The translations under genes and the position numbers were made by a program. This document shows positions 2,572 through 24,844 of a DNA stretch of 64,000 bases, one piece after another (the first letter of the stretch is position 1; each line of letters opens with the position of its first letter). The notes beneath the pieces were generated by a model. That model had not been told where the DNA came from and made no database searches. It was given only the letters and a program-made list of their open reading frames with translations. The DNA is taken from the sequence record MZ234025.1, one strand, 5' to 3'. The DNA comes from Escherichia phage vB_EcoM-172859UKE1.

Positions 2572-2946
2572 ATGAATATGTCTCAAGCAATTTTTACTGC
2601 AATCACCGAAAACACAACTGTTGAAGTAGTTTCTCCACTGGCAACCTACGTTATTCTTGCTCCTAAAACTATTGTATCTCGTATGGAAAACACAGGCAAA
2701 CGTATCGTACAAATAGTTGGAGCCGGAAATCAAAAACTTGATTATCTACGAACCATCAAAGCTTATGAACATTTCCAACTCGAAAAAGGTTCTCCTATTC
2801 AGGTAGAACTCGTAAATGGTGATATCGTTCGAGCAATGTTCCATCATTTCTATGCATTGAATGACCCATCTAAAGCGGTTCGTTTAATTGCATACGATGC
2901 AAACCAAAACGAAATCAACGCAGATATATCTAAATTACGTTTTTAA
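2572..2946 (+). CDS. hypothetical protein (124 aa)
   Basis: ORF with upstream SD (aggaaaacattATG); same strand as neighbours; no recognisable motif. Confidence 0.5.
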   Translation: MNMSQAIFTAITENTTVEVVSPLATYVILAPKTIVSRMENTGKRIVQIVGAGNQKLDYLRTIKAYEHFQLEKGSPIQVELVNGDIVRAMFHHFYALNDPSKAVRLIAYDANQNEINADISKLRF

Positions 2947-2996
2947 GTTTACTTCTCCAGTAGTTGTGTTATTATAGACCTATCAACTACTGGAGA
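2947..2996 (+). promoter_or_regulatory. Early sigma70-type promoter embedded in stem-loop (GTTTAC 2947-2952, TATTAT 2970-2975)
   Basis: 17-bp spacer; perfect 13-bp inverted repeat tctccagtagttg / caactactggaga flanks the -10. Confidence 0.6.
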
Positions 2997-3001
2997 ACAA
3001 A

Positions 3002-3319
3002 ATGAAAACCATCGATTGTAAAGCAGAATTTAAGATTTTTTATCACGGTTCAAGTAGTTCAGCTAACATCGAAAACATGCTTTGTCCTCCTGAGGAAACA
3101 GGAGTTCTGTCTGAAACTGGACGTAAGAAAAACTTGGATCGTGTATTCTTTACTGAAGATATAGGTTTAGCAAAGATTTATGCAGGACGAGCAGCACGCT
3201 CTTATGGAGGTGAACCACGTCTCTATCGAGTAATTTCTCCGGTAGATGTAGTTCAAATGAATGATACTAAAGGTGCTACAGTTTATCACGCTGAATGGGC
3301 ATTTTGCGAGGAAATATGA
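3002..3319 (+). CDS. small Arr-like ADP-ribosyltransferase candidate (105 aa)
   Basis: FYHGSS motif followed ~30 aa later by VFFTED and GEPRLYRV, resembling rifampin-ADP-ribosyltransferase (Arr) FYHGT...IYFS...YIYIVEP layout; SD ggagaacaaaATG; stop overlaps dmd start. Confidence 0.4.
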   Translation: MKTIDCKAEFKIFYHGSSSSANIENMLCPPEETGVLSETGRKKNLDRVFFTEDIGLAKIYAGRAARSYGGEPRLYRVISPVDVVQMNDTKGATVYHAEWAFCEEI

Positions 3320-7011: not shown

Positions 7012-7205
7012 ACAAGCCCTATAATAGCAAAGGCCAAATCGACTACAGTATCCAATGGAACAGAAGGAACTATAATACCATTAGCAACTAACAATGGTGC
7101 GATACCGAAGTTCCATGAAATAATGCCACCTACAACTATTGCGGCGATAGCAGTTTTCTTTTTATTGCCTTTAATAGCATTGATTAACGATGGAAGTTTA
7201 AACAT
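7008..7205 (-). CDS. small hydrophobic membrane protein (65 aa), antisense to the early gene block
   Basis: Consensus SD AAGGAG 5 nt upstream of ATG on minus strand; two hydrophobic segments; lies in 61-56 gap and overlaps the last 4 nt of 61. Confidence 0.45.
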   Translation of the reverse strand: MFKLPSLINAIKGNKKKTAIAAIVVGGIISWNFGIAPLLVANGIIVPSVPLDTVVDLAFAIIGLV

Positions 7206-7293
7206 AATATCTCCTTAGTTACCTATTATTTATTACGCTTTATAAAATTAATGTTAGAATTAACTCTCTTATACTGAATTGAAAGGAAAAATA

Positions 7294-7815
7294 ATGGCAC
7301 ACTTTAACGAATGTTCACAACTTATTTCTGGTGTTGATAAAGCAGAAGAAGCTTATTTTAATGCTCTGATTCACGAAGATAAAGACCCACTGCAGGTAAT
7401 GCTTGATATGCAGAAATCTTTACAGGTTCGTCTGGCAAATGACAAGCCTGAACATAACAAACATCCTGATGAATTGGCTACTGCTGGTGATGTTGTTGAT
7501 TGGCTGCGTAATCAGAAAGATTATATTGATGATGAATTCCGTGAACTGCTGACTTCACTTGGTGGTATGAGCAATGGTGAAAAAGCCGCCAGCAGTGTAT
7601 GGAAGCCGTGGAAGGCACAACATGCTGAATATCGTAATCGTCGTATCGATGAACTGTCTCCTGAAGACCAGCTTGAAATTAAATTTGAGATGATTGATAT
7701 TCTGCACTTTGTTCTGAACATGTTCCAAGGTCTTGGGCTTTCTGCTGAAGAAATCTTTAAACTTTACTACTTGAAAAACCAACACAACTTTGAACGCCAG
7801 GATAACGGTTACTAA
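7294..7815 (+). CDS. 56: gp56 dCTPase/dUTPase (MazG-like dCTP pyrophosphatase)
   Basis: MAHFNEC... start after gaaaggaaaaataATG; high similarity to T4 gp56 as recalled. Confidence 0.9.
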   Translation: MAHFNECSQLISGVDKAEEAYFNALIHEDKDPLQVMLDMQKSLQVRLANDKPEHNKHPDELATAGDVVDWLRNQKDYIDDEFRELLTSLGGMSNGEKAASSVWKPWKAQHAEYRNRRIDELSPEDQLEIKFEMIDILHFVLNMFQGLGLSAEEIFKLYYLKNQHNFERQDNGY

Positions 7816-16915: not shown

Positions 16916-17094
16916 TGCCGTTATACGACTATAAATGTCAATCTGAAGATTGTGGTCATGAATATGAAAAAATTAAAAGGATTTCTGAACGAGAAAACGA
17001 TGTTTGCCCTGAATGTCATCGTCTGTCTACTCGTCGGGTTTCTGCTCCTAAACATGTGAACGGTGGTTTTTACGACTTACTTAAGAAGGGTTAA
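16915..17094 (+). CDS. zinc-ribbon small protein (59 aa), FmdB-like CxxC...CPxC
   Basis: [18 protein letters not shown]...NDVCPECH; ATG overlaps previous stop (TAATG); not in ORF track (<60 aa). Confidence 0.5.
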   Translation: MPLYDYKCQSEDCGHEYEKIKRISERENDVCPECHRLSTRRVSAPKHVNGGFYDLLKKG

Positions 17095-17096
17095 TT

Positions 17097-17522
17097 ATGG
17101 CTTTTAAAGGTTTTGAAGTTGGTAAGAAATATCGTATTATCAAAGGACAGGAAGATAATTTCTTGAGAATTCTTAATACGACTGGTAAACGTCTTAATAC
17201 TAATCTGCATACTACTTTATTGTCCAAAGATTTTATTGTGGAAGAGATGATTGGTTACGGCGTTTCTGTGATTGCTGTAGAAGCCGTAGGCGATTATGGC
17301 CGAACTATTCATAGTATGCAAGGTGATATTCTGCTTTATGGTGCAGAATTTAAATTCTTTGAAGAAGTTCCGGAACCAGATACAGCTGTCGATTTCAAAA
17401 AAGGCTCTATAGAATTTGTTGATGGTTCGGTGATCGTATCAGGCGATGTGGTCATTACAGTTAAAAGTGAACAAGGGCGTTTGGCTGCAATTGATGCACT
17501 TCAGAAAATTAAATTTAAATAA
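17097..17522 (+). CDS. hypothetical protein (141 aa; position and length of T4 goF)
   Basis: ORF directly upstream of gene 39; assignment positional only. Confidence 0.4.
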   Translation: MAFKGFEVGKKYRIIKGQEDNFLRILNTTGKRLNTNLHTTLLSKDFIVEEMIGYGVSVIAVEAVGDYGRTIHSMQGDILLYGAEFKFFEEVPEPDTAVDFKKGSIEFVDGSVIVSGDVVITVKSEQGRLAAIDALQKIKFK

Positions 17523-17541
17523 GGGCTTCGGCCCTTTTTGC
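17523..17541 (+). terminator. Terminator hairpin gggcTTCGgccc + T run
   Basis: Hairpin with UUCG loop after stop. Confidence 0.6.
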
Positions 17542-17585
17542 TTTAGATTTCGGATGATAGAATACCTTCATAACGAGGAGACAAC

Positions 17586-19403
17586 ATGATTAAAAATGAA
17601 ATTAAGGTATTGTCAGATGTAGAACATATTAAGAAACGCAGTGGCATGTATATTGGTTCTTCGGCCAAAGAAGCCCACGAGCGTTTTTTGTTTGGTAAAT
17701 ATCAACAAGTTGAATATGTTCCTGGTCTGGTTAAATTAATCGATGAGATTATTGACAACTCGGTTGATGAAGCTATTCGTACATCATTTAAGTTTGCAAA
17801 TAAAATTGATGTGCAAATTAAAAATAATCAAGTTTCGGTGGAAGATAACGGACGTGGTATTCCTCAAGGTTTAGTTACCGACCAAAATGGTGAACAGATT
17901 CCTGGGCCTGTAGCAGCCTGGACTATTCCAAAGGCTGGTGGTAACTTTGGCGATGACTCTGAACGCAAGACTGGTGGTATGAACGGCGTCGGGAGTAGTT
18001 TAACTAATATCTTCTCTACGTTGTTTACAGGCATCACGTCAGATGGCGAAAATGAAATCACTGTTAACTGTTCAAACGGAATGGAAAACAAATCATGGTC
18101 TTCTAAGAAATCTAAAGGTAAAGGCACTAAAGTAATCTTCACTCCTGATTTCACTTCATTTGAAGAGCATAATTTATCTCAAATTTATTTAGATATTACT
18201 TTAGACCGACTTCAAACATTGGCAGTCGTTTATCCTGACATCAAGTTCACATTTAATGGTAAAAAGGTTGATGGTAATTTTAAACGATTTGCTAAACAAT
18301 TTGGTGAAGATAACATCATTCAAGAAAATGATAAAGTCTCTATAGCATTCACAACATCACCAGATGGCTTCCGTCATTTAACTTATGTGAATAACATCCA
18401 TACTAAAAATGGTGGTCATCATGTTGAATGCGTAATGGATGATATCTGCGAACATCTTTTGCCAGGTATTAAAAAGAAATATAAGGGTATTGAAGTCACT
18501 AAAGCTCGTGTTAAAGAATGTCTCACAATGTTGATGTTTATTAGAGACATGAGCAATATGCGTTTTGATTCTCAGACTAAAGAACGTTTAACGTCAACGT
18601 ATGGTGATATTCGTAATCATATCCAATTAGATGCTAAGAAAATTGCTCAGGCACTTCTTAAAAACGAAGCCTTGATTATGCCTATTGTTGAAGCAGCATT
18701 AGCTCGTAAATTGGCGGCAGAAAAGGCTGCGGAAACTAAAGCAGCTAAAAAGGCAACTAAAGCTAAGGTTCATAAGCATATTAAAGCTAACCAATGTGGT
18801 AAAGACGCAGATACGACATTGTTCTTAACAGAAGGTGATTCGGCAATTGGTTATCTCATTGATGTTCGTGACCGTGAACTACACGGCGGATTCCCATTAC
18901 GTGGTAAGGTGATGAATAGCTGGGGTATGTCGTATGCTGATATGATGAAGAACAAAGAGCTCTTTGATATCTGTGCTATCACAGGTCTTATTCTTGGTGA
19001 AAAGGCAGAGAATACGAACTATCGTAATATTGCAATTATGACCGATGCCGATCATGATGGTCTTGGAAGTATTTATCCGGCTTTGCTTGCTTTCTTTAGT
19101 AATTGGCCCGAATTGTTCGAACAAGGACGTATTCGCTTTGTTAAAACGCCTGTAATTATTGCACAAATTGGCAAAACTCAAAAATGGTTTTATACTGTAG
19201 CTGAGTATGAAGAAGTTAAAGATACACTGCCTAAGCATAGTATTCGATACATCAAGGGATTGGGCTCCCTTGAAAAGTCAGAATATCGTGAAATGATTCA
19301 GAATCCTGTGTACGACGTAGTTAAACTTCCTGAAAATTGGAAAGAACTCTTTGAAATGTTGTTGGGTGATGATTCAGAACTTCGTAAAGAATGGATGTCC
19401 TAA
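17586..19403 (+). CDS. 39: DNA topoisomerase II large subunit, fused 39+60 form (GyrB-like ATPase + Toprim)
   Basis: GHKL ATPase motifs plus Toprim TEGDSA in one 605-aa ORF; no gene-60 bypass gap. Confidence 0.9.
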   Translation: MIKNEIKVLSDVEHIKKRSGMYIGSSAKEAHERFLFGKYQQVEYVPGLVKLIDEIIDNSVDEAIRTSFKFANKIDVQIKNNQVSVEDNGRGIPQGLVTDQNGEQIPGPVAAWTIPKAGGNFGDDSERKTGGMNGVGSSLTNIFSTLFTGITSDGENEITVNCSNGMENKSWSSKKSKGKGTKVIFTPDFTSFEEHNLSQIYLDITLDRLQTLAVVYPDIKFTFNGKKVDGNFKRFAKQFGEDNIIQENDKVSIAFTTSPDGFRHLTYVNNIHTKNGGHHVECVMDDICEHLLPGIKKKYKGIEVTKARVKECLTMLMFIRDMSNMRFDSQTKERLTSTYGDIRNHIQLDAKKIAQALLKNEALIMPIVEAALARKLAAEKAAETKAAKKATKAKVHKHIKANQCGKDADTTLFLTEGDSAIGYLIDVRDRELHGGFPLRGKVMNSWGMSYADMMKNKELFDICAITGLILGEKAENTNYRNIAIMTDADHDGLGSIYPALLAFFSNWPELFEQGRIRFVKTPVIIAQIGKTQKWFYTVAEYEEVKDTLPKHSIRYIKGLGSLEKSEYREMIQNPVYDVVKLPENWKELFEMLLGDDSELRKEWMS

Positions 19404-19430
19404 GCTCCTTCGGGAGCTTCATTTTAATTT
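19402..19430 (+). terminator. Terminator hairpin aagctccTTCGggagctt
   Basis: Perfect stem with UUCG loop then T-rich tract. Confidence 0.55.
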
Positions 19431-19445
19431 TAATAAGGCTTAATT

Positions 19446-20546
19446 ATGAAAGTTATGTTTATCCCATCTCGTGCAGCCCCATTTAATCCTGACCGTGTAC
19501 AAGGTGGCCTTGAAGCAGTACATTTAAATGTGTTGAAATATCTTGTGTCCATCGGTGCTGATATTGATTATATCGGCTTTGATAATGACACGTTTGGTGA
19601 CTGGAAAGTTACACACCATCCTGTTGGTCATCTGGCTAAATTCAGTCTAGGTATGAGTTATACTATGGCTCGTAAGATTGTTGAACTAGCCAGCATTAAT
19701 GAATACGATTTCGTTGTTACAATGGAACCGACCAAACTAACGGTCCAAGCAATTAAAGATGCTGGACTCTCTAAAGTTCATAAGAATTTTATGGCTACAC
19801 CGTTTGAACCAGTGTCTCGTGGTATTGTTCAAATTTGGGATCAGACTATCCAGATTCACAAGAACGGTGGGAAGAGCTATGCTCCTACTAAAGCATTCCG
19901 TGAATTTGAACGTAAATATTGTCATATGACTTCAGCTCTTACTGACAAAATTGATTATGACTACTGGCGTGAAAATCCATTATTTGAACCTGATGACTAC
20001 CCGGTTATTTGTTTGAATGAAAAACCTGAAGTTCTTCCGGCAACTGAGTTGATTATTAGTGCTCAACGTTATGACACTAAGATGCGTCGCACTGATGTTG
20101 CTCTTGAAGCAATTAAAGCACTAGGCGAAAATGGTATTGGTTATTGTCCAAGCAAATGGGCACCACCAGCTAAATATCCTGTTATTATTGATGCTCCACA
20201 CAGTGAAATCATGGAACGTCTTAAAACAGCTAAAGCACTTATTAATACATGCCCTGACACAGGTACGGTAGAGAATAGTTCTATTGAAGCTATCTCTAAA
20301 GGTGTCCCTGTAATCCAGTTAGTTTTTAAGGATTATCCTCATGCGACATTCGAATACGATCCAGATACTGTGCGTGTAGAAATTGATTCCTCTACTCCTA
20401 AGAAAGAAGTAGTTGCGCTTTACACAAAAGCTGTATTAGAATTCACTGACACATACGAAGCTCGAGTTAAACGTGCTGAAGCAGTATGGAAGAAGTATAA
20501 CCGAGATGCAGTTGTTGCGATGTGGGATAAAATCTTCACAGCGTAA
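19446..20546 (+). CDS. GT-B fold (GT4-like) glycosyltransferase; candidate DNA hmC sugar transferase
   Basis: N-terminal MKVMFIPS...GGLEAVHLNVL and C-terminal ENSSIEAISKGVPVI donor-binding motif typical of GT4 enzymes; located between 39 and rIIA. Confidence 0.55.
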   Translation: MKVMFIPSRAAPFNPDRVQGGLEAVHLNVLKYLVSIGADIDYIGFDNDTFGDWKVTHHPVGHLAKFSLGMSYTMARKIVELASINEYDFVVTMEPTKLTVQAIKDAGLSKVHKNFMATPFEPVSRGIVQIWDQTIQIHKNGGKSYAPTKAFREFERKYCHMTSALTDKIDYDYWRENPLFEPDDYPVICLNEKPEVLPATELIISAQRYDTKMRRTDVALEAIKALGENGIGYCPSKWAPPAKYPVIIDAPHSEIMERLKTAKALINTCPDTGTVENSSIEAISKGVPVIQLVFKDYPHATFEYDPDTVRVEIDSSTPKKEVVALYTKAVLEFTDTYEARVKRAEAVWKKYNRDAVVAMWDKIFTA

Positions 20547-20638
20547 ATCCTGAATAGCCTGAGGCACTATTACACATAAGATGATAAATTATATGGTCTT
20601 TAGTAATAGTGCCCTAGGAATCTACTGAAGAGAATATT

Positions 20639-20839
20639 ATGAGAACATATAACGTGGACTTGGAACTTTTTGATAAAGCAGTGCTCCGGGAATTCCGGCT
20701 TATCCAAAGATTTTTTGATATCGAGTCAGCAGAGTCCTTTAAAGAACGCTTTAAAGAAATTAGATATAAAATACAAACCGATACAGCTACTAAAGAAGAA
20801 CTTCTTGAAGTAGCAGAAATTTTTAAACGTAACTTGTGA
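20639..20839 (+). CDS. hypothetical protein (rIIA.1 position)
   Basis: 66-aa ORF directly upstream of rIIA. Confidence 0.4.
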   Translation: MRTYNVDLELFDKAVLREFRLIQRFFDIESAESFKERFKEIRYKIQTDTATKEELLEVAEIFKRNL

Positions 20840-20851
20840 TGAGAGAAAAAT

Positions 20852-23065
20852 ATGATTATTGAAACGGCTAAAGAAACGATTATTGGTTCAGGCGGTAAGA
20901 GCACAGCATTTACTATTCAAGGCAATAGCAAAGTTTATAAGATTTTGTCTAATGACCTTTATACAAACAAAGAATTGGCTTGTGTACGTGAATTAATCAC
21001 AAACTGTATCGATGGACAAATTCTTAACGGTTGCACTGATAAGTTTATTGTTCAGGCTCCAGGTCGTTTAGACCCACGTTTTGTAGTTCGAGACTTTGGT
21101 CCTGGTATGAGTGATTTCACCATTCGAGGTAATGACGAAGAGCCAGGAATCTATAACTCATATTTTGCTTCAACTAAAACATCGAGTAACGATTTCATTG
21201 GTGGATTCGGACTCGGCTCTAAAGCTCCACTAGCATATACCGATACGTTTAACCTTACGTCTTATCACAACGGTGAAGTTCGTGGTTACGTAATCTACCA
21301 AGATGACACGGGTCCACAAATTAAGCCAACCTTTGTAGATAAGATGGGCCCTGATGACCGTACGGGTGTAGAAGTAGTTGTACCGGTTAACCCAGAAGAT
21401 TTTGAAAAGTTCGCATCCGAAATTGCTTATGTTATGCGTCCTCTCGGCGATATTGCAGAAGTTCGTGGTGTTAAAGATATTAAATACTTCCCGGAATTCG
21501 ATGATGTTTATTTAGCCAAGGAAGCTCCATGGGGTGAACGTGGTAATATCATGGCTGTTTATGGCGGTATTGTATATCCAATCGGAAGTGTTATTAAAGA
21601 ACAAACATGGATGATGACACGATGCACTACAGCTTATATTAAATTCCCAATGGGTGAACTAGATGTTGCTCCGTCTCGCGAAGCATTGTCATTTGATAAA
21701 CGTACAGTAGCAAATATCCATAAACGCGTTGCAGAAATCGATGCTAAATTGTTCGCTGAAGATTCTAAGAAATGGATTGATTGTAAATACCCACGACATG
21801 TGTTCCGCGAAATTGATTCTCTTGGCTATACCGCTCGTAAATACATGGAAAAGGCCGGGTCTAATATTGAATCACTGAAATACTCTAAAGAACAACTAAC
21901 TTATTCTGAGTTGTACAAACGTTTTAAAATGGGACCTGAGTGGTGTAATCTTGGTGTCGTATACGATATCGTTGAATCCCCTCGTCTTCGTCGTATTCGT
22001 GAAAGTGGTAGCTCATCATCAACCATTTCAATTAACAGCCTGATTGGCATTAACATTAAAAACGTTGAAATTGTTATTGACGATGTTAAGGGACGCGTTC
22101 CATTAATGCGAGCTCTTAATTCAATTGAAATGTCTAAAGACGAGGTTAAATTATCCGGTAAAGTTCCACGCGGTTTTGGTAAAAGCGTACTATTCGTTGA
22201 CCCTACAGACGAAGACGCAATGAAACTTCTGGAACGCCTTAAAGTTATCTTTGATGGCGACAACATTAACATGTACAAGACTTCAGAGCTTTTACAAATC
22301 GTTAAGCCATGGATTGAAGTCAGGAAACGGACTAATGAGCCTCGTCCTAAATCCCCGAGTGCTCATCGATTCTTTAAGAATGAAAACGATGTTTGGGTAT
22401 CAGAAGACCTCTTTATTCCGGCAAGTGAAGCAGATGAAATCCAAGGTTATGCTATAGTTCGTAATCGTTCTAATGCTGAATGTCTTGACGCAGATAAAGG
22501 TTGGTTGAACTATGACTCCAATTTCTTGACCCGTATTGCTGATTTGTCAGGTATTAAAGAGTTCACTGTAGTTCGTCCACAGATTGCTAAGAAAGTTCGT
22601 AAACTTGGTGAAGTAGAATGCTTGTTCGAAAAATCAATTAATGACTATATTACGCTAATTGATAAAGTGGATTATGATGAGTATGTATCACCAAGTCGTA
22701 GAGCACAGCCTTATTTGAATCATATTACTCGTAACGAAGAGCTTAACTTCCTTAGTAAGTATTTTAGCTCTAAGAACAAAGAAATCAGTAAAGACTTTGC
22801 AAAACTCTCAACAGTAAATAATCGTTGGGGATGGAATCGATTCGCAGGTGCTACTAATACAGACCTGAATAAGAAGTTAGAATTGTGTGCTAAAATTTTC
22901 GATAAGCTTAAAGATAATGCTTACGATAATGATGATAAAATGGTTATTGAATTCGAAACCAATTATCATATTGTGTCAGAATACATGGGACGACGTGGTA
23001 CTCTTTCCAAAGAACAGGTCGCTCAAATCGTTAAATTCATGAAGGCCGTGGAAGCGGCCAAATAA
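20852..23065 (+). CDS. rIIA: RIIA lysis-inhibition/Rex-exclusion protein
   Basis: 737 aa with N-terminal GHKL-like ATPase region; followed by rIIB. Confidence 0.9.
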   Translation: MIIETAKETIIGSGGKSTAFTIQGNSKVYKILSNDLYTNKELACVRELITNCIDGQILNGCTDKFIVQAPGRLDPRFVVRDFGPGMSDFTIRGNDEEPGIYNSYFASTKTSSNDFIGGFGLGSKAPLAYTDTFNLTSYHNGEVRGYVIYQDDTGPQIKPTFVDKMGPDDRTGVEVVVPVNPEDFEKFASEIAYVMRPLGDIAEVRGVKDIKYFPEFDDVYLAKEAPWGERGNIMAVYGGIVYPIGSVIKEQTWMMTRCTTAYIKFPMGELDVAPSREALSFDKRTVANIHKRVAEIDAKLFAEDSKKWIDCKYPRHVFREIDSLGYTARKYMEKAGSNIESLKYSKEQLTYSELYKRFKMGPEWCNLGVVYDIVESPRLRRIRESGSSSSTISINSLIGINIKNVEIVIDDVKGRVPLMRALNSIEMSKDEVKLSGKVPRGFGKSVLFVDPTDEDAMKLLERLKVIFDGDNINMYKTSELLQIVKPWIEVRKRTNEPRPKSPSAHRFFKNENDVWVSEDLFIPASEADEIQGYAIVRNRSNAECLDADKGWLNYDSNFLTRIADLSGIKEFTVVRPQIAKKVRKLGEVECLFEKSINDYITLIDKVDYDEYVSPSRRAQPYLNHITRNEELNFLSKYFSSKNKEISKDFAKLSTVNNRWGWNRFAGATNTDLNKKLELCAKIFDKLKDNAYDNDDKMVIEFETNYHIVSEYMGRRGTLSKEQVAQIVKFMKAVEAAK

Positions 23066-23074
23066 GGAAACATT

Positions 23075-24022
23075 ATGTACAATATTAAATGCTTGTCCCA
23101 AGAAGAACAGTTAGAAGCTTACGGCCTGGTTGAATCAGGCAAATGGACTCGTAAAGAAATTGCCGATTACTTCGACATTTCAACAGATACTCTTCGTAAG
23201 ATTGTTAAGAATTTTAAAGCAGAAGGCGTTGTCCCTGAAGCAAACGATGCCTCTTATGTAATCGAAGAAGTTCCAGAAAATGATGAACCTATTATCGGCG
23301 GACATCGTCCTGAAATCGTATGGAACGCGTCATCTAAATTTATTTCAATTATTGAAGGACGCGTAGCATACAATGCGACTCCATCAAGTCATGCAAATTT
23401 TGAAGAAATTAAAGCTAATCTGGTCGCAGGAAACCTTAGTAAAGCTGTCGAACTTATTAACATCAAGAAAGCTATTAGTAAGTTTGTTGACGGTAATGTC
23501 GTTATTGAAGGTGGTAGTTTATTTTATCAAGGTATAGAGATTCGTTCTGGCCTGGTTAATCGTATTATTGATTCTATGGAAAAAGGCGAAGACTTTAAAT
23601 TCTATCTACCGTTCCTTGAAAACCTGTTAGAAAACCCAAGCGAAAAAGCTGTACAACGTTTATTCGACTTCTTGGTTGCAAATGATATTGAAATCACTGA
23701 AGATGGGCATTTCTACGCGTGGAAAGTAGTTCGTAAAGATTATTTAGATTGCTATAGCGGTACATTTGATAACTCACCAGGTAAAGTTGTTTCAATGCCT
23801 CGTACTCGTGTTAACGATGATGATACACAAACCTGCTCCCGTGGTCTACATGTTTGCGCTAAATCGTATATTCGTTACTTTGGTTCTAGCTCAGATAAAG
23901 TTGTTAAGGTTAAAGTTCATCCACGTGATGTTGTATCTATCCCAGTTGACTATGGCGATGCTAAGATGCGTACTTGTCGTTATGAAGTAATTTCAGACGT
24001 TACTGAATTATTTGCAGAATAA
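23075..24022 (+). CDS. rIIB: RIIB protein
   Basis: 315 aa, T4 synteny and length. Confidence 0.85.
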   Translation: MYNIKCLSQEEQLEAYGLVESGKWTRKEIADYFDISTDTLRKIVKNFKAEGVVPEANDASYVIEEVPENDEPIIGGHRPEIVWNASSKFISIIEGRVAYNATPSSHANFEEIKANLVAGNLSKAVELINIKKAISKFVDGNVVIEGGSLFYQGIEIRSGLVNRIIDSMEKGEDFKFYLPFLENLLENPSEKAVQRLFDFLVANDIEITEDGHFYAWKVVRKDYLDCYSGTFDNSPGKVVSMPRTRVNDDDTQTCSRGLHVCAKSYIRYFGSSSDKVVKVKVHPRDVVSIPVDYGDAKMRTCRYEVISDVTELFAE

Positions 24023-24027
24023 TAATT

Positions 24028-24050
24028 GGGGACTTCGGTCCCCTTTTTTC
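24028..24050 (+). terminator. Terminator ggggacTTCGgtcccc + T6 after rIIB
   Basis: Perfect hairpin, UUCG loop, T run. Confidence 0.75.
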
Positions 24051-24063
24051 TTTAGGGGTAATT

Positions 24064-24351
24064 ATGATTCATCCATTTGACGTATCAGAATCCAAAATTG
24101 CTAATCTTCGTGGTCATCATAAGTGTAAATCAGTTTATTGTGCTAAATTGGTAAAACATCCTGGCGATGCACACTATGGTTGGTTAGAATGCGACGAAGT
24201 TGTTATTGAAATCCCACTGGTAGATGCAGAATATCTTGAAGAAGGTGACCGCATTTATTTTGGCGAACTACACATCAGAGGTATCTATGGTAAAGACGAA
24301 CTTGGGACTGTTGAGACTGAAGAATCTTCCGACATTTATCCTGTCGAATGA
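24064..24351 (+). CDS. hypothetical protein (95 aa)
   Basis: ORF after rIIB terminator. Confidence 0.4.
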   Translation: MIHPFDVSESKIANLRGHHKCKSVYCAKLVKHPGDAHYGWLECDEVVIEIPLVDAEYLEEGDRIYFGELHIRGIYGKDELGTVETEESSDIYPVE

Positions 24352-24367
24352 GTTTTTGACTAGTGAA

Positions 24368-24844
24368 ATGAAGGTGAAGATTGCTGACACTGCTCGGTAT
24401 TCCCTGAGCCAAAATCCTGACCAAAACAAAGAAGACGTTGTTCGACGTTGTAAGGTTGCAGTCTTTGCAGAGTATGTAGTAGCAAATTGGCTAGACGGAT
24501 ATGTTAATAAAGGTAATGAAGACGTAGAAGACCCGTACACGTATGCATGGGACGTTTTAGCTCATCCTAAATACTGCGGGTTACGTGTCGAAGTCAAGAC
24601 GCACCAGATCGATTCTAAATGGATTTCGGTTACCACAGGATACAGTGGTGATTATCCAGGTGGCAACGGAATCAACATAGGGCCCTTCTTGAATCATCGA
24701 GTCGCAGATTGCATTATTATATTAGATGTCAAAGAAACCTCACCTGACGTCTTCTCTTATTCTATAAAGTTCGTGGGAGACCATGAGGACCTAAAGAAAA
24801 TCGTCCGCAAGAGCAACTACAACGGGTGGTATCTTCATCTTTAA
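24368..24844 (+). CDS. putative PD-(D/E)xK-type nuclease (position of T4 denB)
   Basis: D...EVK motif (DVLAHPKYCGLRVEVKTHQ); ATG 24368; positional equivalence to denB only. Confidence 0.35.
   Translation: MKVKIADTARYSLSQNPDQNKEDVVRRCKVAVFAEYVVANWLDGYVNKGNEDVEDPYTYAWDVLAHPKYCGLRVEVKTHQIDSKWISVTTGYSGDYPGGNGINIGPFLNHRVADCIIILDVKETSPDVFSYSIKFVGDHEDLKKIVRKSNYNGWYLHL

Follow-up and report, generated by a model that had tools for sequence, protein, structure and literature searches.

A GT-B glycosyltransferase encoded between gene 39 and rIIA.1 as the probable second DNA arabinofuranosyltransferase of Mosigvirus phages

Arabinosylated 5-hydroxycytosine is a recently characterised hypermodification of phage DNA that blocks many restriction enzymes as well as some CRISPR-Cas and glycosylase defences. 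In the DNA of phage RB69, mono- and di-arabinosylated 5-hydroxycytosine were identified by MS/MS and NMR, the disaccharide form being beta-D-Araf-(1->3)-alpha-D-Araf-5-hydroxy-2'-deoxycytidine, without a methylene bridge (Lee et al., NAR 2026, PMC13326640). The pathway described there starts from 5hodCMP, made by a flavin-containing thymidylate-synthase homolog, and uses UDP-arabinofuranose as the proposed donor, which would be supplied by an arabinose-5-P isomerase, a bifunctional kinase/nucleotidyltransferase, and a HAD phosphatase. RB69 gp46:47, encoded within the biosynthetic cluster, is listed as the first transferase, and RB69 gp3 as 'beta-arabinosyltransferase 2' (PMC13326640). For the latter, then named ORF003c, an arabinosyltransferase role in RB69 had been proposed earlier (Thomas et al. 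2018, PMC6024577).

Related phages differ in the number of sugars carried by their DNA. In an independent study, Mosigvirus NP was found to contain mono- and di-arabinosyl-dC at a ratio of 1:4, and LC-MS and NMR of RB69 and NP DNA identified 5-hydroxycytosine (PMC13326640, PMC13390438). Bas46 and Bas47 are reported to be doubly arabinosylated (PMC12923530). The DNA of the Shewanella phage Thanatos is reported to carry a single pentose (PMC12838424), and this phage is described as mono-arabinosylated with a single ara-GT (PMC13326640). At the other end of the range, RB69 DNA receives a third Araf from UDP-Araf in vitro when gp76 and gp77 of Acinetobacter phage DLP3 are combined; either paralog by itself was inactive, and none of the glycosyltransferases acted individually on 5hoC DNA (PMC13326640). 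According to PMC13216743, which does not specify the gene, Bas46 became sensitive to a plasmid-borne defence once its 'arabinosyltransferase Aat' had been deleted. In the literature covered, outside of which lie Mahler et al. 2025 and He et al. 2026, no direct assay was found of RB69 gp3 or of the protein considered here.

This protein is encoded by Escherichia phage vB_EcoM-172859UKE1 (MZ234025.1), of which a stretch of 64,000 nucleotides was analysed (hereafter the window). A preliminary description, made from the letters alone, had drawn attention to an ORF of 366 aa at 19446-20546 and proposed it as a candidate sugar transferase acting on hmC DNA. The ORF and the strings quoted from both ends of its product are indeed present in the translation, with MKVMFIPS...GGLEAVHLNVLKYL at the N-terminus and ENSSIEAISKGVPVI at residues 276-290. 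The features of the window that are relevant to the present analysis are the following:

7279..7815, + strand: gp56-like dCTPase/NTP pyrophosphohydrolase (PHROG 173, E 2e-45)
17586..19403, + strand: topoisomerase II large subunit, genes 39 and 60 fused, 605 aa (PHROG 543 over the full length; PHROG 7229 on residues 452-605)
19402..19419, + strand: UUCG-tetraloop hairpin AAGCUCC-UUCG-GGAGCUU (7 bp, -10.5 kcal/mol, z -3.2)
19435..19438, + strand: AAGG Shine-Dalgarno-like element, 7 nt 5' of the ATG of the ORF (read from sequence)
19446..20546, + strand: 366-aa GT-B (GT4-like) glycosyltransferase ORF, putative second DNA arabinofuranosyltransferase (ATG start; homology, fold, synteny)
20558..20618, + strand: long hairpin in the spacer between this ORF and rIIA.1 (23 bp, -27.6 kcal/mol, z -5.5 versus shuffles)
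20639..20839, + strand: rIIA.1 (Pfam T4_RIIA1, PF24210, E 2e-30)
20852..23065: rIIA, 3' of rIIA.1, with rIIB also downstream

The ORF is clearly a real gene and not a chance ORF, since PHROG 8302 ('unknown function') covers it end to end (E 2e-219), it is present in 163 phage records at 90% or more nucleotide identity, it has homologs in Acinetobacter phages, and its dN/dS is 0.079 in comparison with phage AlbertHofmann (17 synonymous and 5 non-synonymous changes). It is under purifying selection. The closest match of the window is Shigella phage SSE1, of the genus Mosigvirus, with 97-98% identity across the first 32 kb and 99.6% within the ORF; the Bas47 gene shares 98% identity with the ORF. 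In GenBank, the gene is mostly labelled 'hypothetical protein', other labels being 'hmC-arabinosyltransferase', 'DNA alpha-glucosyltransferase' or 'ATP-binding protein'. Mosigvirus genomes without the gene were sought with a 3.5-kb flank as query: among the sampled matches listed, all complete genomes of at least 93% identity covered the ORF, and rows of lower coverage corresponded to record ends or fragments.

The locus between gene 39 and rIIA.1/rIIA is conserved, the RB69 and HY126 genomes carrying the gene at the same place. As the preliminary description had recognised, genes 39 and 60 are fused here: PHROG 543 and PHROG 7229 both match the single 605-aa ORF, and the fusion is also noted in the RB69 record. 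Because this ORF is continuous, the window genome lacks the translational-bypass element of T4 gene 60 as well as mobA. The same description had the glycosyltransferase gene standing in for gene 60, mobA, and rIIA.1 of T4. The first two are correctly placed; rIIA.1, by contrast, is present at 20639..20839, so that the ORF takes only the gene 60/mobA segment.

Two RNA hairpins flank the gene. The UUCG hairpin overlaps the gp39 stop codon, 26 nt ahead of the ORF, with CAUUUUAAUU after it. This hairpin is a possible partial terminator, or else might stabilise the mRNA. The longer hairpin, in the spacer upstream of rIIA.1, has neither a U-tract nor an Rfam match. It is nearly invariant in 5 other Mosigvirus genomes and more conserved than the flanking coding sequence, and with zero covariation the alignment neither supports nor refutes the structure. 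This element could be involved in mRNA processing or stability, or could be regulatory. An Rfam scan of 17000-24500 gave nothing meaningful. No promoter is proposed, as a sigma-70 scan gave fewer sites than shuffled sequence.

The match to a transferase of RB69-like phages, suggested at first from the position of the gene, is borne out by alignment: 353 of the 366 residues (96%) are identical to RB69ORF003c (NP_861693.1), a protein of equal length whose gene likewise lies between gene 39 and rIIA.1. None of the 13 substitutions falls in a family-invariant column, and on this comparison no functional difference between the two proteins is expected. An ortholog of known structure is the glycosyltransferase of phage HY126, which matches over the whole length with 97% identity (PDB 9iqz, E 7.5e-247), has the same three-dimensional structure, and shows no difference of substance. 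Its apo form (9iqz) and the form crystallised 'with UDP' (9ir0) were released on 2025-07-16. The paper by He et al. 2026 (Nat Chem Biol) presumably reports this structure. The HY126 gene in GenBank (PP658200, 3001-4098) reads ...SKGVLGIQL... where 9iqz and all relatives read ...SKGVPVIQL..., a conserved donor-site motif; the genome record probably contains a sequencing difference here. Publications between 2018 and 2026 already cover the gene, together with its candidate function and fold and the crystal structure of this 97%-identical ortholog. The result for the window adds no new biology, and its value lies in the correct annotation of a gene that is often left hypothetical or mislabelled. 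Mosigviruses are common in phage-therapy collections, and a gene-to-sugar assignment would give access to phages with defined mono- or di-arabinosyl DNA and a predictable sensitivity to defence systems.

Structure prediction and fold comparison revealed a GT-B fold with two Rossmann-like domains. The model used was obtained with AlphaFold on a 10-sequence alignment; an earlier 6-sequence model was poor (pLDDT 56.9) and served only for a preliminary Foldseek search. The GT-B fold assigned in the preliminary description is therefore correct. Profile-HMM searching, which it had put forward as a check, returned no glycosyltransferase family at gathering score (PF00534, PF13439, and PF13692 included) and cannot confirm the fold. 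Indeed, no Pfam family matched the protein at E<=1, NCBIfam gave no match, and the only glycosyltransferase-related match of ten family members against Pfam at E<=10 was one weak GT4-conflict hit (E 0.0028). Among PDB sequences, the family profile matched only 9iqz. Identity to GT4-type retaining GT-B enzymes (BshA, PimA, MshA, WaaG, and the sucrose-phosphate synthase 6kih) is only 10-16%, and the window family further differs from them in its DNA-linked acceptor and furanose donor, both of which are deduced in the case of the window protein.

Three motifs are invariant in nine family members, down to 36% identity: a Gly loop (G20-G21-L22), Q207-R208-x-D210-xxx-R214, and T272-G-T-x-E276-xx-S-x-E281-A-I-xx-G286. 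Residues 248-352 are 35% identical to a bona fide Pfam Glycos_transf_1 protein, and this region spans the EX7E motif of the latter. The second Glu (E281) and G-x-P-V are kept in the window family, the first Glu is replaced by the invariant Thr272, and an invariant Glu276 lies four residues ahead of Glu281 (x4 spacing). From these motifs, R208, R214, and E281 are predicted to bind the nucleotide-sugar. Given Thr272 in place of the first EX7E Glu, together with the lack of a Pfam glycosyltransferase match, a GT4-style retaining mechanism is not established.

The family is very small. A representative search of 1.84 billion proteins yielded 14 representative hits at E<=0.001, about ten of which are genuine members or fragments. 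A homolog search with an alignment as query contributed five divergent sequences, of which four are full-length, to the second alignment; a second search of this kind retrieved no further members. The most divergent full-length member, on a JGI contig (3300045321, 3040-4224), has 394 aa and is 33% identical. It adjoins T4-like DNA ligase and DsbA genes, not arabinose genes; the family has therefore relocated in T4-like genomes more than once.

As suggested in the preliminary description, the protein does not resemble the T4 enzymes: no sequence homology was found to alpha-gt (GT72; PDB 1y6f/1xv5) or beta-gt (GT63). The systems also differ in their acceptor. That of T4 is hmC, made by a gp42-type dCMP hydroxymethylase, which does not apply to the window system. 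The hmC acceptor initially assumed, following the 2018 paper, is outdated, the sugar being carried by 5-hydroxycytosine (PMC13326640, PMC13390438).

The genes expected to supply the modified base and the donor lie elsewhere. In SSE1, an arabinose cluster is located between the DNA polymerase gene and uvsX, and stops about 0.6 kb short of the point at which the window begins, UvsX residue 160. This accounts for the early remark that donor-synthesis genes are not evident in the window. The cluster encodes an arabinose-5-P isomerase (SIS domain), a bifunctional NTP-transferase/kinase (NTP_transferase and kinase domains), a small ORF, a U32-like protein (Peptidase_U32), a ThyA-like enzyme (Thymidylat_synt), the first transferase, and a kinase. 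The ThyA homolog reads '...MRSQN...MQLD', RSQN presumably standing where ThyA has RSCD, with D169N mapped onto this ThyA motif. RSQN corresponds to the D169N signature, which is described as that of 5hodCMP synthases (PMC13326640). Judging from relatives that are 97-99% identical in the stretches compared, the window's own genome probably contains the same cluster. The first-transferase gene adjoins the 5hodCMP synthase gene, and the window ORF has no similarity to this 299-aa transferase or to the U32-like protein.

The two transferases have different distributions. Phage records with the first transferase number 348 and come from many genera, including Mosigvirus, JS98/IME08-type coliphages, and phages of Klebsiella, Enterobacter, Serratia, Proteus, Yersinia, Shewanella (Thanatos), and Acinetobacter. 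The window ORF family is found in 211 records, with one copy in Mosigvirus, two in Acinetobacter phages, plus one Tegunavirus; Thanatos carries the first transferase and lacks this family. The DLP3 paralogs gp77 (XEO41443.1) and gp76 (XEO41444.1), beta-arabinosyltransferases 2/3, share the invariant motifs of the window family and are 43% and 41% identical to the window protein over the full length. In DLP1 and DLP3, both homologs (41-43% identical) sit inside the arabinose cluster, whereas the single Mosigvirus copy lies about 20 kb from it. The DLP3 pair makes a third, beta-(1->5)-linked sugar that is absent from Mosigvirus DNA. A third arrangement of both glycosyltransferase genes was observed in an uncultivated phage, beside the separated genes of Mosigvirus and the shared cluster of the Acinetobacter phages: on a Logan contig (SRR26937416, 450-2482), a 42%-identical homolog is followed by a first-transferase homolog, itself 48% identical to the SSE1 protein, with a 4-nt overlap between the stop of the former and the start of the latter.

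When the published DNA chemistry (PMC13326640, PMC13390438, PMC12838424, PMC12923530) is set beside these distributions, the number of family copies follows the number of additional sugars, with none in Thanatos, one in Mosigvirus, and two in DLP3, whose DNA is tri-arabinosylated. This fits an extension enzyme, not a base-directed transferase. It is quite probable that the ORF encodes the second DNA arabinofuranosyltransferase of Mosigvirus, equivalent to RB69 gp3 and the HY126 glycosyltransferase, which adds the second Araf to arabinosyl-5hoC DNA. That the protein adds sugar number two is a published proposal (PMC13326640), to which we add here the phyletic and copy-number pattern.

In the proposed mechanism, the enzyme would be a soluble GT-B protein of the GT4 type whose C-terminal domain would bind the UDP-sugar, the presumed donor being UDP-D-arabinofuranose. 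Its substrate would be phage DNA in which every cytosine is replaced by 5-hydroxycytosine already bearing one alpha-D-arabinofuranose, placed by the unrelated first transferase from the cluster between the DNA polymerase gene and uvsX. Transfer of a second D-Araf to O3 of the first sugar would generate beta-D-Araf-(1->3)-alpha-D-Araf-5-hydroxy-dC, the major base form in Mosigvirus virions, and this bulkier disaccharide would probably protect against a wider range of host defences that target DNA. The beta linkage observed would be explained by retention, as in GT4 enzymes, provided that the donor is UDP-beta-D-Araf; inversion would then be required of the first transferase. UDP-beta-D-Araf is the 1,2-cis anomer, and is assumed as donor from general nucleotide-sugar chemistry.

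It is rather unlikely, and yet worth considering, that this GT4-like enzyme departs from such a scheme in its mechanism or role. It might extend the sugar in the major groove of duplex DNA without base flipping. It might also possess a variant catalytic motif adapted to a furanose donor, in which Thr272/Glu276 would take the place of the first EX7E Glu. Finally, its action might depend on sequence context and leave about 20% of the sites mono-arabinosylated, as in the 1:4 ratio of phage NP; if so, the outcome would be a mixed epigenome hedging against defences that recognise either form.

The inactivity of each DLP3 paralog alone implies that a picture of a single enzyme acting in a single step may be too simple. 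These paralogs, active only together (PMC13326640), would be compatible with the protein being an obligate partner of the first transferase or of another phage protein, which might help to bind the acceptor or the DNA instead of carrying out the whole catalysis. The translational coupling of the metagenomic phage homolog to a first-transferase gene points the same way, and the non-canonical EX7E could fit a degenerate active site. In Mosigvirus, however, the gene is present as a single copy about 20 kb from the cluster and its donor-site residues are invariant, and the crystallisation of the HY126 ortholog with UDP (9ir0) argues for a functional nucleotide-sugar site. An obligate-partner role is considered quite improbable.

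As for the addition of the first arabinose straight onto the base, whether hmC as proposed in 2018 or 5hoC in an updated form, the ORF would then be the primary transferase. This very improbable reading conflicts with several observations. First, the DNA has no hmC-linked sugar (PMC13326640, PMC13390438). Second, all arabinosylating phages, Thanatos included, share the unrelated 299-aa glycosyltransferase encoded beside the 5hodCMP synthase. Third, Thanatos is mono-pentosylated in the absence of the window family, whose copies, as described above, track the extra sugars. Lastly, a non-DNA target (a host envelope glycan, a lipid, or a phage protein) is extremely improbable, and the envelope-glycan role was rejected on the phage-only distribution and the cluster linkage. 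In favour of such a target, the close structural neighbours of the protein (PimA, WaaG, BshA) are all lipid, LPS or small-molecule glycosyltransferases, and a homolog is labelled 'glycosyltransferase involved in cell wall biosynthesis' in one metagenomic source. Against it, family members are restricted to T4-like phages and strictly accompany the arabinosylation cluster, within which they are encoded in Acinetobacter phages, and homologs act on DNA in vitro (PMC13326640).

Besides the putative second arabinofuranosyltransferase, the window was found to contain a single further component of the cytosine-replacement pathway, the gp56-like dCTPase at 7279..7815. Its TTG start is a mechanical call and the true start is perhaps further downstream; its role in the pathway is given in the dCTPase row of Table 1 of Lee et al. 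(PMC13326640). Beside the corresponding gene, SSE1 carries about 640 extra nt (7148-7791, 'homing endonuclease') that are absent from the window at about 7281-7287, which shows that the window is not SSE1 itself. Homing-endonuclease insertions were also seen near the glycosyltransferase gene in some genomes of the flank search; phiC120 and F27 harbor one of about 800 nt ('homing endonuclease') inside the equivalent of window positions 18400-21900. Finally, Shigella phage JK45 (MK962757), a record classed as Tequatrovirus whose sequence is Mosigvirus-like, contains at 2602-3196 a tandem duplication of about 503 nt, equivalent to window positions 20136-20638. The duplicated stretch takes in the hairpin spacer and the 3' part of the transferase gene, the latter carrying an annotation of its own as a 411-nt ORF. 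The duplication may be genuine or may have arisen during assembly.
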